A DNA stretch of 61,240 bases, counting the filler. It is 3 parts of 3 records of this genome, joined end to end, with 100 filler letters (N's around TTAATTAATTAA, not from the genome) between each part and the next. Parts side by side here need not be neighbours in the genome. Positions count along the whole stretch, not along the records: positions 27,387 to 51,170 come from DRR723986_4698; 2 more parts are not named here. One strand, 5' to 3'. The stretch's first letter is position 1. Every line of letters begins with the position of its first letter. A model generated the notes under the pieces. That model was not told where the DNA came from. It saw only the letters and a program-made list of their open reading frames with translations, and made no database searches. Below, piece by piece: positions 30,365-48,202 of this stretch. The position numbers were made by a program, and so were the translations under genes.

Positions 30365-31174
30365 TTGGGACGGTTTGTCCTTCAGGAGCTTTATTCGTTC
30401 GTGTCGCAGAGGTTTTCAGTAACGAGTGCTTTGTGTTCCATATGGCTCTGCGCCGCCTCCCAAGGCGCGGCGCAGGTCACCTTCGACGAGGTCGAGGCCG
30501 CGTTGTCCGCACTCGAGCAGACATTGGACCTCCCTCAGCCCGGCCCCGTCGAGCCCAAGCCCCTGACAGGACAGACCACTCCTCCCCCCCAGGTCCTTCT
30601 GGGCGGGCAAACCGATGCCGACGAGGGTTCGCCCCTCGGGAGTGGGATCGCGTTCCTGCCGATCCCGACCGATCAAACCTGCGCGCGCGGCATTGGCACG
30701 ATCGTGGAAGACGCCGACGCGCTGGATGAGCGGGTCCGCAAGACCGAGGTTGCGGCTCTCAAGCTCGACAAGCGTTTCTCGAAACTCGAGGAAGAGAACC
30801 AGGCCTACGAAACCGATCCGACCGTGAATGCCTGTCCGGACGATTTCTTCGAAGAGGTCGAGGCTTTCGTGGCCGAATTGGCTGCGCTGGATTACGCGCC
30901 CTTCGTTCTGGAAGCGGAATCGCTCTCGGTCTGTGCACAGGCCGGACGCCTCGCGACCGATGCCCGCATGTCGGAACTGGCCCAGAGCGCGGACCTCAAC
31001 GCAGCAAAGGATCGCCTGGCCTGGGGTGAAGTCCTGCAACGCTGGACCAAGGCCGATGTGCAGATTTCCGAGGCGGTCCGCAGTCTGGTGTTCTTCGATC
31101 AGCGCCGCGGCCGTCTGCAAACGGCTTCTGAGGCCATGTTGCGCCGCTGCCAATTCCTTCGGGGCTACGAATGA
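30365..31174 (+). CDS. Exported helical/coiled-coil protein with four conserved Cys (paralog of 36055-36600)
   Basis: Signal-peptide-like ...SIWLCAASQGAA/Q; start may be GTG 30401 after AGGAG; stop overlaps next ATG. Confidence 0.75.
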   Translation: MGRFVLQELYSFVSQRFSVTSALCSIWLCAASQGAAQVTFDEVEAALSALEQTLDLPQPGPVEPKPLTGQTTPPPQVLLGGQTDADEGSPLGSGIAFLPIPTDQTCARGIGTIVEDADALDERVRKTEVAALKLDKRFSKLEEENQAYETDPTVNACPDDFFEEVEAFVAELAALDYAPFVLEAESLSVCAQAGRLATDARMSELAQSADLNAAKDRLAWGEVLQRWTKADVQISEAVRSLVFFDQRRGRLQTASEAMLRRCQFLRGYE

Positions 31175-31680
31175 GGACGGTTCGCAGGACTTCAGGCGTG
31201 AAGAAGGATGTCCGGTCAACGCCCGGCCAAACCTCGGTCAGGGCCGCTCTGATGGCGGCCGGGATGGTATGCGCGGCGGTGGTGCCGGAGTTTGCCGCCG
31301 CAGAGCAGACGACAGGTACCACGCGGCCTGCGGCATCGGACGGGCAAGGCGTCGCGACGGGCGCCGTCGCCGCATCGGCCCGGGAAATCCTTGCGCTGAT
31401 CGAGGTCGGCTCGGCCTTCGAATTCGCCCTGAACGACGCACATGCGGAAGCCATGGTGCTTCTGCGTCGGACCGAGCGCGAACCTCCAAGCCCTGCCCGA
31501 GACCGGCGGCTTCAGGAGTTGCGCCGCCTCCTCCCGGAAATGGACCGTCTGATCGAAGCGGTCTTCGCGACGGAGGTCGCGTTGAAGAAGCGTCTGATGG
31601 CCTCCGATGCTTCGGAAGGGGGCGCGCCGAAAGCCATTCAGGACAAAACAAGGAGCGGACATGAACATGAAGACGATTAG
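31171..31680 (+). CDS. Exported helical protein (shorter paralog of 31661-32317)
   Basis: Hydrophobic leader; VLLRRTEREPPSP motif shared with next gene. Confidence 0.65.
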   Translation: MRTVRRTSGVKKDVRSTPGQTSVRAALMAAGMVCAAVVPEFAAAEQTTGTTRPAASDGQGVATGAVAASAREILALIEVGSAFEFALNDAHAEAMVLLRRTEREPPSPARDRRLQELRRLLPEMDRLIEAVFATEVALKKRLMASDASEGGAPKAIQDKTRSGHEHEDD

Positions 31681-32317
31681 CCTGACCTGCGCGGTCTGCG
31701 TGGCGCTGGCAAGCGGCGCGGCAGCCCCCGCCAGCGCCCAGGACGGCTTTGCCCGGCAGGAGCAGCTTCAGGAACTCGGAGCCGATCTCAGCGGGATCTC
31801 GTCGAGGGTGCGGCAGTCCGTCGAAGACACGATGGCCTCGATCCAGAACTTTCAGGATTTCTCGGGCGATGAGCAGACCGATCAAGCAACGAAAGTTCTC
31901 GACGCGATCGAAGTGGAGACCCGGCAGATCATCGACAAGATCAAGATCACGTCCCCATTCATGAGCGCGCTGGACGACGCACGCGCGAACGTTCTCGTCC
32001 TGCTGCGCAAGAACGAACGCGACCCGCCAAGCCCGTTCCGGAACGCTCGCATCGCGAAACTGACGACCGCTCTCGCCTCGATCGACGAGCAGACCGAGCA
32101 GATCGTGGCGGCGGAAAGCACTCTGACCGCCATGCTGGCAGAGCACAGCCGCCTGCGTTCCGAACTGATGCAGGACGGCGTCGTCTATGCTGCCCAACTC
32201 TTCGTGGAAGACCTCAGCAAGCTGACCGACGGCTTGCAGGAGATGGCGAACGTGCTGTCCCAGATCTCCGGCAGCATCGCCCCCGTACCCACCGAAGCAA
32301 GCCTTGCATCCGAATAA
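31661..32317 (+). CDS. Exported coiled-coil protein
   Basis: AGGAG + ATG 31661; signal peptide ending APASA/Q; heptad-rich. Confidence 0.8.
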   Translation: MNMKTISLTCAVCVALASGAAAPASAQDGFARQEQLQELGADLSGISSRVRQSVEDTMASIQNFQDFSGDEQTDQATKVLDAIEVETRQIIDKIKITSPFMSALDDARANVLVLLRKNERDPPSPFRNARIAKLTTALASIDEQTEQIVAAESTLTAMLAEHSRLRSELMQDGVVYAAQLFVEDLSKLTDGLQEMANVLSQISGSIAPVPTEASLASE

Positions 32318-46542: not shown

Positions 46543-47228
46543 TCGGTCTCGTCGCGCCTCTCTTCCTCGCCTGCAGCGGCCTGTGCGCCGAGGCTTCGGC
46601 CGAGCGGGAACAGCCCCTCCTTCTTGCAGAGCAACAAGCCGGACCCGGAAACCCCTTCCTCTCAAAGCCGGAAAGCAACGAGCCCCGCACCCGGACCGAA
46701 GACGCCGGTCCGTTCGGCGGCAGCTCGCAACCCGGCCTTTCGGTCCCGACCGATTGCGGAGCATCCTCGGGTCTGGGGCGTGCAGACCTCCGCAAGCCTC
46801 ATGTTGCCGAGGCGCTGTGCGCCGGAGCCTTTCACGACCTCGACGACGAATGGTTGTTCGTCCTGAACTACGTGCGCGGCTTCAACGAATTCCTGGAAGA
46901 GCGCGGGTCCTTTCTGGACCCGACCGGCGCCTGTTCCCGCGCCGTAGAGCCGCGCGCATCGCTCGGGCTGGTCTACAGCGTCGTCGATCGCGCCATGTCC
47001 GGCGACCTGAGCGGCTTCGAAGACGACAGGTTGACGGCGATGTTGAAGCCCTTTCAGGAAGATTGGAAACGACTGCCCTTCATCGTCTGGGAATTGAACG
47101 TTTGGAAACGTGAAGGGCGGCTGGACGCGACAAGTGTGGCCTCGAAAGGCATGTGCGCCGATCCGGCGTTTCTCCTCTTCTGGGATAAAGCCATCGAATA
47201 CGTCCAACGCGTTCCGGTGGTGGACTGA
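46539..47228 (+). CDS. Exported hypothetical protein
   Basis: GTG start overlapping previous stop, GGAGG upstream; signal-like leader; several Cys. Confidence 0.65.
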   Translation: MIGLVAPLFLACSGLCAEASAEREQPLLLAEQQAGPGNPFLSKPESNEPRTRTEDAGPFGGSSQPGLSVPTDCGASSGLGRADLRKPHVAEALCAGAFHDLDDEWLFVLNYVRGFNEFLEERGSFLDPTGACSRAVEPRASLGLVYSVVDRAMSGDLSGFEDDRLTAMLKPFQEDWKRLPFIVWELNVWKREGRLDATSVASKGMCADPAFLLFWDKAIEYVQRVPVVD

Positions 47229-48202
47229 TGGCAATCCGGTTCAGACTGGCCCTCGTCGCATTTGTCCTGTTGTCGGTGCTCGGCGCGTTGCCCGGGCGGG
47301 GGGAGGCCGGGCATTTCGGGCCCCCTCCGTCCGGCCTGCTGCGGTCCTCGGATCAGGACGGCGTTCATCTGGCGAAGACGATCCGCCGGACATTCAATTC
47401 GGCTGCAAAGCCGGTGGTCCGTCCCCCGGCCACGCGGTCCATGGCCCCGAAACCGAAGCCACCCCGTGCGCGTCTTGCGCCCGGGCCACGCCCCCCCGGA
47501 CTCGGGACATCGAGCATACGGGCGCAACCCGGGGCCGGTCCGGTGCGGGGCGCCCGAGCTTCCGGCAGGAACCCGAAAGGCAAGGCCGCCACGATCGCAG
47601 CGGCGGGAAACCGGGCGCCGGCGGTCGCGCGCCCAAGCGCGGCGTTCCGGGCGGAGGCGCGACGCGGCGCCCTACGCCCCGGTTTCAACCGCGCGGCAAG
47701 ACCCGCGGCGCGCGCGGTCCCGGCGCGTGGCGCAACGACACTCTGGGGGACCCCGCCGAATCTCCGAAGGAATACGCTGCGCCCGATCTTCAACGGTTCG
47801 GTCCGCAACTCGAAGATCGCAGCGGATTTTCGCAAGGCGAACAGCTATCCCGGCGCAATGGGCCCCGTGACTTGGCGGCTCACCAAGCCGGGCGAGGTGT
47901 TTACCCGCTCCCACTACGGCTCCTCGAGCAGACAAAGCGGCCGCTATGCCGCGCTGTCGCGATCCCCGAACGTGCGCCATGCACGCGAAACCTATGCGCT
48001 TCCCAAGGCGAACAAGGGCTATCGGGTGTCGCAGTTCGTGGGGACGGGACGCGAGCTTGTCGGCATATCCCGCGTGGCCCCCGCGTATGGACGCCGCGGC
48101 GGTGGCTTGCAGGCCTACTTTCCGTCGATGCCCTCATTCAAGCCGGCCGGTTGGAACAAGGGGGCGCTTCAGGAAATCTTTGGCCAGGCGGCGGCGAAAT
48201 GA
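47228..48202 (+). CDS. Signal-peptide protein with Arg/Pro/Ala-rich linker and C-terminal TNT/Tne2-like putative NAD(P)+ glycohydrolase domain
   Basis: Signal peptide ending GEA/G; C-terminal R..G...G.Y...AR..YALP..N...VAPAYGRRGGGLQAYF motif. Confidence 0.6.
   Translation: MAIRFRLALVAFVLLSVLGALPGRGEAGHFGPPPSGLLRSSDQDGVHLAKTIRRTFNSAAKPVVRPPATRSMAPKPKPPRARLAPGPRPPGLGTSSIRAQPGAGPVRGARASGRNPKGKAATIAAAGNRAPAVARPSAAFRAEARRGALRPGFNRAARPAARAVPARGATTLWGTPPNLRRNTLRPIFNGSVRNSKIAADFRKANSYPGAMGPVTWRLTKPGEVFTRSHYGSSSRQSGRYAALSRSPNVRHARETYALPKANKGYRVSQFVGTGRELVGISRVAPAYGRRGGGLQAYFPSMPSFKPAGWNKGALQEIFGQAAAK

Follow-up and report, generated by a model that had tools for sequence, protein, structure and literature searches.

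What is encoded by the run of 21 same-strand genes at positions 30365 to 48202 of the 61,240-nucleotide stretch of DNA analysed here (the window, in which contig DRR723986_4698 supplies positions 27,387 to 51,170), and do its parts belong to one machine? The initial annotation of this block, whose genes are numbered g01 to g21 in order, had proposed a stand-alone envelope apparatus joining a proton motor, exported coiled-coil proteins, a TagQRST-like module, a protease and a terminal toxin-like protein. Our analysis leads, with evenly balanced confidence, to a two-module envelope system, independent of type VI secretion (the system called T6SS), in which a kinase-less damage sensor of TagQ, TagR and vWA type would be joined, within the periplasm, to a proton motor of Tol type.

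A TagQRST-like sensor module without a kinase

The sensor genes are g13 to g18 (Table 1). In a homologue search that covered 5.8 billion protein clusters, residues ~177–808 of g13 aligned with the periplasmic region of Pseudomonas PpkA, a T6SS kinase, at 27–30% identity (78% of the query, E ~1e-62 to 1e-69), and closer relatives, 33–79% identical, were found that have no kinase domain. The Pfam vWA match of g13 lies below the cut-off; across 17 sequences, the residues that resemble a metal site (D375, T377, S379, T457 and D490) show little or no variation. Pfam gave no Pkinase match for g13, and the Pseudomonas kinase domain, used as a tblastn query against the window, found no match either. 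The kinase-less relatives that were compared all open with hydrophobic residues up to an AxA-Q end, behind which a helical segment starts at once, and the N-terminal hydrophobic segment of g13 itself contains neither His nor Asp. Judging from its sequence, we read g13 as a probably secreted protein composed of a coiled coil, a Pro-rich linker and a vWA region, from which the kinase and the membrane helix would have been lost.

Within the first 75 residues of the motor-type g13 relatives (P0001–P0034), a Pro ... Gly-Ser-Glu/Gln ... Ala motif stands right after the signal-like segment, and the conserved start of the L013-type group (P0041–P0054) differs from this motif. The conserved mature N-terminal motif of the motor-type vWA proteins is possibly a docking motif.

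The genes after g13 match, in order, the TagT, TagS, TagR and TagQ components, with a trypsin-like protease at the end. The identification of g17 as TagQ combines a sub-threshold match to the NCBIfam model VI_TagQ (E 1.6e-5 over 200 of 301 positions) with the Gly-zipper Pfam matches; its LTGC lipobox was recognised by eye. Four of four orthologues of g18 keep its His, Asp and Ser motifs. Eighty related loci, taken from one-genome-per-species contigs (44 of them non-Pseudomonas), were then compared: downstream of the g13 homologue, on the same strand, come g14 in 80 of the 80, g15 in 75 and g16 in 71, the g16 homologue always lying downstream of the tagS homologue where it occurs, and g17 is detectable by BLAST in 12. 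Thirty-five of the loci are of Pseudomonas type, in which tssK, tssL, tssM, tagF, pppA and the domain for the kinase stand immediately upstream, and one further locus of this type is a short contig that holds the kinase only. Because the order over the 80 loci matches that of the 35 Pseudomonas-type loci, the order in the window is the canonical ppkA-tagT-tagS-tagR-tagQ. The TagQRST-like module and protease of the initial annotation are real.

The module stands outside any T6SS locus. Searches of the window with Pseudomonas TssK, TssL, TssM, TagF, PppA and the kinase domain, and with SrfB and SrfC, returned no match (very divergent genes may escape these queries), and Fha had no match in the window. 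TssC (PF05943) was unmatched in five of the six genomes that bear the motor described below (G001, G002, G131, G359 and G426); the sixth, G003, has a TssC match ~1 Mb from its cluster, and a Pseudomonas control gave two matches. The earlier statement that no T6SS, srfB or srfC gene accompanies the block agrees with these searches of the window and, for TssC, of the five genomes.

Other partners of the sensor module are found among the non-Pseudomonas loci. A SrfC-like gene lies upstream in 16 of the 44 and a SrfB-like gene in 15 (Pfam-confirmed on L022 only), and in six of the 44 tagQ is followed by a trypsin plus peptidoglycan-binding protein distinct from g18 (Pfam-confirmed on L038 only). 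Upstream of the sensor module in L038 there is a TIR-domain gene (6004–7953, by Pfam), and L006 (1–8214) holds a TIR-like open reading frame (ORF) together with a 1391-residue STAND-like ORF, both read by eye; TIR and STAND genes beside sensor modules of this trypsin subgroup hint at immune-type wiring. Three of the contigs are likely mislabelled or mis-binned: L033, titled Leclercia tamurae, has T6SS proteins 91–97% identical to a Pseudomonas locus, and L020 (titled Mycobacteriaceae) and L023 (titled Anaerolineae) group with alphaproteobacterial Srf-type loci.

A predicted Tol-like proton motor with two unlike TolR-like proteins

The motor genes are g04 to g09. At their centre, g06 matches the MotA_ExbB family (PF01618) with E 1.4e-8 and 34.9 bits, the cut-off being 22.9. 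Its motifs LPLLGFxGTVxG and AFDTT are invariant in four of four sequences, as are T137, T174 and T175, which are presumably pore threonines. When g06 was aligned by hhalign with the TolQ encoded elsewhere in the window, the last two helices matched (E 1.7e-4). The g06 family comprises 171 clusters at E ≤ 0.001 among those searched.

The two genes that follow encode proteins with an acidic residue in a single membrane helix. In g07, seven of seven orthologues keep Asp18 and also share two invariant periplasmic Cys, and Asp23 is the sole invariant residue among 87 members of the g08 family (114 representatives among 1.84 billion proteins). Neither protein matches ExbD (PF02472) in Pfam, and their sequence profiles, searched against the PDB, gave chance-level rows only. 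The AlphaFold2 (AF2) model of g08, with a predicted local distance difference test (pLDDT) value of 88.8, was compared with 48,161 chains in a structural search, in which the periplasmic domain of Escherichia coli TolR ranked second (Z 6.0, root mean square deviation (rmsd) 3.3, 85 of 105 residues aligned) and that of Haemophilus influenzae TolR third (Z 5.9, rmsd 2.8, 69 of 74), behind the unrelated YqgF (Z 6.1); Foldseek of the same model against the PDB found no match at E ≤ 0.001. We call g07 and g08 TolR/ExbD-like because of the Asp helix, the gene context and this weak fold signal. The proton-motor triad that had been proposed is supported in g06 to g08, as a PF01618 channel with two probable TolR/ExbD-like partners.

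Orthologues of g09 occur in all motor loci (by position in G426), and g09 matches no Pfam family; on our reading its periplasmic domain, in which Cys residues are conserved, resembles TPR repeats. A role for g09 as a TonB/TolA-like partner was considered and rejected, as the 'SHL' near its membrane helix varies among orthologues. The first gene of the module, g04, is present in six related loci and genomes (L002, L005, L013, L082, G131 and G359) and, by position, in G426; a Protein Atlas search returned unnamed clusters only, with scores ≤ 0.82.

Conservation and distribution of the two modules

Gene order is kept in close and distant relatives. G131 and G359 carry g01 and g03 to g18 in the order of the window at 40–74% identity, and the core (g04, g06–g09 and g13–g17) recurs in the same order, at 25–45% protein identity, in three distant genomes: L002 (Albimonas sp. 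CAU 1670), L005 (a Chromatiaceae metagenome-assembled genome (MAG)) and L013 (a gammaproteobacterial MAG). Small exported ORFs occupy the same gaps in these three, those at the position of g05 being of like size, and every motor locus has two to three more small exported or membrane proteins between g09 and g13. Given an order kept in close and distant genomes, the arrangement is more than chance. The view that all 21 genes form one unit does not hold: g02 is a local duplicate, g19 to g21 are absent in relatives, and motor and sensor also occur apart.

The motor is rare. Hidden Markov models of g06, g07 and g08 found no further motor-bearing case among the 44 non-Pseudomonas loci. In a 401-genome sample of the order to which G001 belongs, the g08 profile matched three genomes (the sample centre included, G131 and G359 being new); it matched only three loci in a metagenome scan and one of 401 genomes in an alphaproteobacterial sample (again the sample centre). 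Among 400 gammaproteobacterial genomes, one of them unscored, it gave two strong matches and six short weak ones within long ORFs, which are taken as spurious. Metagenome contig L082 holds a CHAT-like gene with g01, g03, g04 and g06–g10.

The motor keeps company with g13. The g13 family occurs in 25 of the 401 genomes of the order sample, among them all three genomes with g08-profile matches, a co-occurrence that, as the genomes are related, is not a clean statistic. Over all samples a g13 homologue is present in six of six motor-bearing genomes, against the background of 25 in 401, and 12 g06 matches seem to share assemblies with a g13 match, which is suggestive only. A tree of the vWA region, built from 53 rows after 30 of the 36 Pseudomonas-type rows were left out, is divided by a fully supported split into a clade of 22, which holds all six motor rows and all six trypsin rows, and a clade of 31, where the T6SS-kinase rows are joined by 14 of the 16 Srf rows.

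By eye, transposase-like ORFs follow directly after the cluster in L002 (16538–17725) and L013 (17514–19310), which fits spread on mobile islands.

Comparison with described systems

In Pseudomonas, according to the accessible text of PMC13713981, TagQ and TagR assemble into a 2:2 complex in response to outer membrane damage, and in the model given there this complex binds the periplasmic domains of two PpkA proteins; the ATPase activity of TagST is required, with its role unexplained, and the complex is without a structure. The cluster shares with this H1-T6SS TagQRST-PpkA pathway five homologous proteins in the same order, including an FGE-fold TagR, a Gly-zipper TagQ and a LolC/FtsX-type ABC pair, and, in g13, a vWA region of PpkA type whose metal-site residues are conserved. 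It differs in that g13 has neither the kinase domain nor the membrane helix, that no PppA, Fha, TagF or T6SS genes lie near the cluster, and that it additionally has a motor, some eight helical exported proteins and a protease.

The likeness to the 5:2 motors of the Tol-Pal and Ton systems resides in g06 (PF01618, with the Gly-Thr and Thr motifs), in the Asp-bearing single-helix partners g07 and g08, in a middling fold resemblance of the g08 model to TolR (Z ~6) and in g09, which faces the periplasm from a single-helix anchor. In contrast to those systems, the cluster has two unlike TolR-like proteins instead of one, with no Pfam ExbD match, and lacks a TolA/TonB C-terminal domain, TolB and a TonB-dependent receptor; a separate, canonical tol-pal operon lies upstream of it in the window. 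The type IX secretion system (T9SS) likewise has a motor, PorL/PorM, with a PorK/PorN ring, and shares with the cluster a MotA/ExbB-type motor and an FGE-sulfatase-fold envelope protein (g16 matches the GldK model weakly and below threshold, E 2.2e-6), whereas PorM-, PorN- and Sov-like genes are missing here; this likeness, which comes from the shared FGE fold only, is a lead. The Myxococcus AglRQS motor consists of one TolQ-like and two TolR-like proteins.

T6SS-free TagQRST/PpkA-like genes beside srfABC appear in 2013 (PMC3608642) and 2026 (bioRxiv 10.64898/2026.09.18.752743), as far as the accessible portions of both sources go. Those loci, like ours, use outside T6SS a vWA protein without a kinase, an ABC pair of Lol type and a protein of the FGE family, and differ from ours in that the window lacks SrfB and SrfC and the partner is a proton motor.

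The motor half has a published counterpart of its own. The accessible text of PMC12204202 (2025) describes vWA proteins encoded beside a tolQ-like gene and two unlike tolR-like genes, and proposes them as force transducers; it predicts a second family, in which a vWA protein with an Asp-bearing helix is encoded next to tolQ-like genes, and suggests a gliding role for the vWA transducers. In that text no outer membrane partner is named and no phenotype reported. With the family tethered by a transmembrane helix (TMH), the cluster shares a tolQ-like gene, two unlike tolR-like genes, a helical-repeat gene (g09, on our reading) and a Pro-rich-linker vWA gene in one cluster, as well as the idea of a motor acting through a vWA head. 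The published vWA proteins are, in the same text, tethered by an SHLS/His membrane helix or an Asp-bearing helix, whereas g13 has a signal-peptide-like start and neither helix; g13 moreover sits 2.7 kb from the motor as part of a PpkA/TagTSRQ module, and the gene order differs. In the second published family (TPH-vWA) the Asp trans-pore helix is fused to the vWA domain and there are no separate tolR-like genes; here the Asp helices are on g07 and g08, both without vWA, and g13 has no such helix.

PpkA, TagQ, TagR, sulfatase and T6SS occur nowhere in the text of PMC12204202 (its figures and supplements, in which overlapping proteobacterial examples are possible, lie outside this count), and a literature search on TagQRST/PpkA together with a TolQ/ExbB/ExbD stator and vWA transducers found no paper describing the union. 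The earlier remark that the combination is not a named system accordingly stands for the union and falls for the motor-vWA half, which the accessible text of PMC12204202 predicts. Both halves are in print separately; what appears, from this literature search, to be new is the joining of motor and sensor in one cluster.

A two-module model and its rivals

We propose that module S (g13 to g18) would act as an outer membrane damage sensor, with the trypsin-like lipoprotein as an accessory, and that module M would be formed by the g04–g09 stator with the helical exported proteins g01–g03, g10 and g12. As in Pseudomonas, perturbation of the outer membrane would lead to a TagQ/TagR complex that binds two vWA proteins, and because no kinase is present the event would stay periplasmic. 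Paired coiled-coil ends, the other exported helical proteins and g09 would connect the sensor to the motor, which would work mechanically over the span from the inner membrane to the TagQ/TagR site, either stabilising or repairing the outer membrane as Tol-Pal does or loading the sensor mechanically. Set against Tol-Pal, g06 would correspond to TolQ, g07/g08 to TolR, g09 with the helical proteins and g13 to TolA, TagR to TolB and TagQ to Pal. Homology of the parts, a kept gene order and freedom from T6SS are what the comparisons show; that the modules are coupled physically, which way the signal runs and what the system does for the cell are what we infer here. A bolder version, which we offer as a tentative possibility, is that the sensor may be mechanical at root: wired through periplasmic coiled coils to a proton motor and not to a kinase, it would let the cell pull, probe or re-tether the outer membrane at a breach.

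Several observations weigh against a coupled sensor and motor. With its signal-like N-terminus, g13 looks secreted, not membrane-tethered. When g07 and g08 were aligned by hhalign with the TolR of the window, the Asp-bearing helix alone matched, and the TolR fold scores of the g08 model are only middling. The gammaproteobacterium G426 carries the motor alone, as a five-gene operon (g04-like, g06 with PF01618 at E 8.6e-12, g07-like, g08 and g09-like) flanked by housekeeping genes, glnE and an aminotransferase to one side, an aldolase and pyruvate kinase to the other; a separate contig of this genome has the g13 homologue. Within the available flanks, 41 of the 44 non-Pseudomonas vWA/Tag loci are without g06, g07 and g08. 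On the vWA tree the motor rows do not form one clade: the label needs four changes, and the starred branches force at least three; the link between motor and sensor has therefore been gained or lost repeatedly. Elsewhere, finally, module S adjoins SrfBC, TIR-domain and protease genes, and an immune or attack output fits equally.

Such an output is the core of the explanation that survives best among the alternatives, an envelope-breach immune or abortive system. Module S would sense damage by a phage or attacker; g18, the cytoplasmic CHAT protease with its partner (Table 1) and, in this lineage, the TNT-like g21 would be the outputs; and the motor would relay the signal through the inner membrane, as Zorya does, or dissipate the membrane potential. 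The CHAT gene and its partner do stay by the cluster in the window, G131, G359 and L082 despite rearrangement, a trypsin-type protease follows tagQ here and in six other loci, and the TIR protein of L038 (Pfam), the TIR-like and large STAND-like ORFs of L006 (by eye) and the transposase-like ORFs at which the L002 and L013 clusters end (by eye) would all suit defence, as would a weak ZorA match of g06 (E 1.1e-4). That match, however, covers the shared MotA region, and PADLOC, run on 20 proteins, called no system, its remaining matches having E > 0.002 and being at chance level. The CHAT gene was not found beside L002, L005 or L013, the G426 motor sits among housekeeping genes, and no cytoplasmic effector is common to all motor loci. 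We regard an immune system as unlikely.

Somewhat more doubtful is that the g04–g09 motor and the kinase-less TagQRST/vWA sensor are two or more independent neighbours, perhaps on a shared mobile island. The solitary motor of G426, the 41 motor-less sensor loci and the scattered motor label on the vWA tree speak for independence. Against it, Alpha- and Gammaproteobacteria share one gene order, in which genes overlap or abut, at 25–45% protein identity, each motor locus has its two to three small exported or membrane proteins between g09 and g13, and the six motor-bearing genomes all have a g13 homologue.

The initial annotation had further suggested delivery of the terminal toxin-like protein, for which the block would be a dedicated export apparatus. 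Its last gene, g21, does overlap g20 by one base and opens with a signal-like segment, and PF14021 (TNT) is the only family matched by the five of five members of its family, each below the cut-off (best E 2e-4; 16.3 bits for the g21 of the window, cut-off 27). A protein-language-model search of its C-terminal 160 residues in the Atlas placed a TNT cluster on top (score 0.92). TNT membership is nevertheless not established, given the sub-threshold score, an AF2 model from five sequences with pLDDT 48 that is too poor for fold comparison, and a phmmer search of the PDB that found no TNT or Tne2 chain. Only four homologues of g21 were found, against 171 g06 clusters from the same 5.8 billion, and no match to g19, g20 or g21 follows g18 in G131, G359 or distant loci (L002 and L013 included). 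Because g19 to g21 are missing after g18 in close and distant relatives, toxin delivery is very unlikely as the purpose of the system; the TNT resemblance of g21 stands as a fair, sub-threshold lead on what is a lineage add-on. A surface-adhesion or gliding-type machine with vWA adhesins, in the manner of the Myxococcus AglRQS motor, would match in its stator, which likewise combines a single channel protein with a pair of dissimilar TolR-like proteins, and in the gliding role suggested in the 2025 vWA study as accessible. It is scarcely credible, as Pfam revealed within the cluster no outer membrane barrel, no large adhesin and no Glt-like gene, and the vWA protein is of PpkA type, tied to TagTSRQ.

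If the bolder, mechanical reading is true, the cluster would represent a new class of 5:2-motor-driven envelope machine, and would hint at such a machine as the ancestor of the ATP- and force-related steps that are unexplained in T6SS 'tit-for-tat' sensing. It offers TagQ and TagR as candidate outer membrane partners of a motor-linked vWA protein, and a natural kinase-free, T6SS-free setting in which to study the physical action of the sensor. It also links two published strands that each anticipate half of the design. At least four kinds of partner accompany the sensor module in its different settings (T6SS with kinase, SrfBC, protease/TIR genes and the motor), and here some eight conserved exported proteins, none of known family, are added.

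Layout of the block and its remaining genes

The coordinates of all features are collected in Table 1. All 21 + strand ORFs were found at the places given by the initial annotation, as were the eight overlaps it named (31171, 34476, 36055, 37190, 37807, 40230, 46539 and 47228). With gene starts as set here, genes overlap at 11 of the 20 junctions, and the remaining gaps are 3 to 65 nucleotides; the g18/g19 gap is 95 nucleotides when g19 begins at ATG 45685. A consensus scan of the block revealed no promoter-like site and no convincing intrinsic terminator on the + strand (19 terminator-like sites, all weak, with 12.2 expected). Rfam and tRNA scans of the window, which has ~65% G+C, were without matches. 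N-terminal hydrophobic segments were judged from a hydropathy scan and by eye, and Pfam gave no family above cut-off for g01–g05, g07–g12, g20 and g21.

Table 1. Coordinates in the window of the 21 genes of the block and of flanking features (aa, amino acids)
Feature	Position	Strand	Description	Basis
tolQ-tolR-tolA-like-tolB-pal	23234-27334	+	canonical operon, upstream of the cluster	
203-aa protein	27950..28561	-	conserved neighbour	frame by codon-position GC; no Pfam/PADLOC match
362-aa protein	28704..29792	-	divergent from g01	63% identical orthologues adjoin g01 in G131, G359
g01	30365..31174	+	exported helical protein, 4 conserved Cys; start codon uncertain	no Pfam match
g02	31171..31680	+	exported helical protein; local duplicate of g03	
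g03	31661..32317	+	exported helical protein	orthologues 69-70% identical in G131, G359
g04	32340..32957	+	exported helical protein; first gene of conserved motor module	no Pfam family
g05	32962..33345	+	small exported helical protein	orthologues in G131, G359
g06	33352..33996	+	TolQ/ExbB/MotA-family proton-channel subunit, stator pentamer candidate	PF01618
g07	34000..34479	+	TolR/ExbD-like protein 1; one N-terminal membrane helix	alignment of 7 orthologues
g08	34476..35144	+	TolR/ExbD-like protein 2; one N-terminal membrane helix with Asp23	
g09	35132..36058	+	inner-membrane protein: one membrane helix, acidic linker, Cys-containing periplasmic helical domain	
g10	36055..36600	+	exported 4-Cys helical protein; paralogue of g01	
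g11	36633..37193	+	small protein, several membrane helices	hydropathy scan
g12	37190..37807	+	exported; helical N-terminal half, beta-rich C-terminal part	no Pfam match
g13	37807..40233	+	kinase-less PpkA homologue: putative signal peptide, coiled coil, Pro-rich linker, PpkA-type periplasmic vWA region	
g14	40230..40952	+	TagT-like ABC ATPase	PF00005 (ABC_tran), E 1.4e-20
g15	40945..42180	+	TagS-like FtsX/LolC-type permease	PF02687 (FtsX); weak lolCE match
g16	42184..44091	+	TagR-like periplasmic FGE-sulfatase-fold protein	PF03781, E 2.6e-15
g17	44125..44976	+	TagQ-like Gly-zipper lipoprotein	PF13441 and PF05433 above cut-off
g18	44987..45589	+	trypsin-like serine protease, probable lipoprotein	PF00089 and PF13365
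g19	45685..46542 (start alternatively 45658)	+	exported Sel1/TPR-like protein outside conserved core	weak TPR_12 match
g20	46539..47228	+	exported Cys-rich protein, lineage-specific	
g21	47228..48202	+	exported, very basic; possible divergent TNT-like C-terminus (NAD-glycohydrolase toxin); lineage-specific	
297-aa partner of CHAT gene	48271..49164	-		frame by codon-position GC; no family match
CHAT protein	49181..51079	-	CHAT (caspase-like) protease, helical N-terminal half	PF12770, E 6.6e-24

The coiled-coil paralogs of the initial annotation proved to be few. Paralogy is confined to g01/g10 (hhalign of the two families: probability 96.3%, E 1.8e-9, 153 columns), g02/g03 (BLASTP E 7e-15, with a single copy in G131, G359 and L082) and a weak mutual match of g03 and g04. 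Orthologues of g01 occur in L082, G131 and G359, those of g12 in G131, G359 and L001, and those of g11 are confined to G131 and G359, at 34–40% identity. At the far end, g20 has no match in Pfam, PADLOC or any related locus. Two loci without the motor, L004 (6900–9086) and L012 (5984–6262), have g19-like Sel1/TPR proteins immediately upstream of the vWA gene.

Genes flanking the block

On the upstream side, the C-terminus of the 362-aa protein looks, by eye, like a LuxR-type helix-turn-helix, and this protein may be a regulator; Pfam GerE was unmatched at E ≤ 0.05. The 203-aa gene stands beside the regulator-like gene in G131 and G359 too. The - strand has, at 30318–30339, a strong GC-rich hairpin of 9 bp with a T-run after it, within the 570-nucleotide gap between the regulator-like gene and g01. 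By codon-position GC, the frames 27917–28555 (+) and 48134–49156 (-) are wrong, the real genes lying in the other strand or frame.

Downstream, the CHAT gene and its partner recur as a pair: the partner follows the CHAT gene in G131 and G359 (the G131/G359 pairs are L089 3–2543 and L088 6814–9639). The CHAT gene lies upstream of g01 in G131, G359 and L082, and downstream and inverted in the window; this placing at opposite ends of the cluster implies inversion or transposition of the pair. Its absence beside the three distant loci makes the association one of the subclade only.

The initial annotation had listed no Tol component, a point corrected by the canonical tolQ-tolR-tolA-tolB-pal operon at ~23.2–27.3 kb of the window. 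Any meaning in the adjacency of this operon to the cluster was rejected, as no Tol proteins stand beside the cluster in other loci. A 543-aa protein encoded at 54271–55902 (-) carries a Por_Secre_tail domain (the T9SS C-terminal sorting domain; 36.7 bits, cut-off 27) and sits in a stretch of low G+C (0.53–0.55, against ~0.65); such a sorting domain is odd for an alphaproteobacterium-like contig and may have been acquired horizontally.

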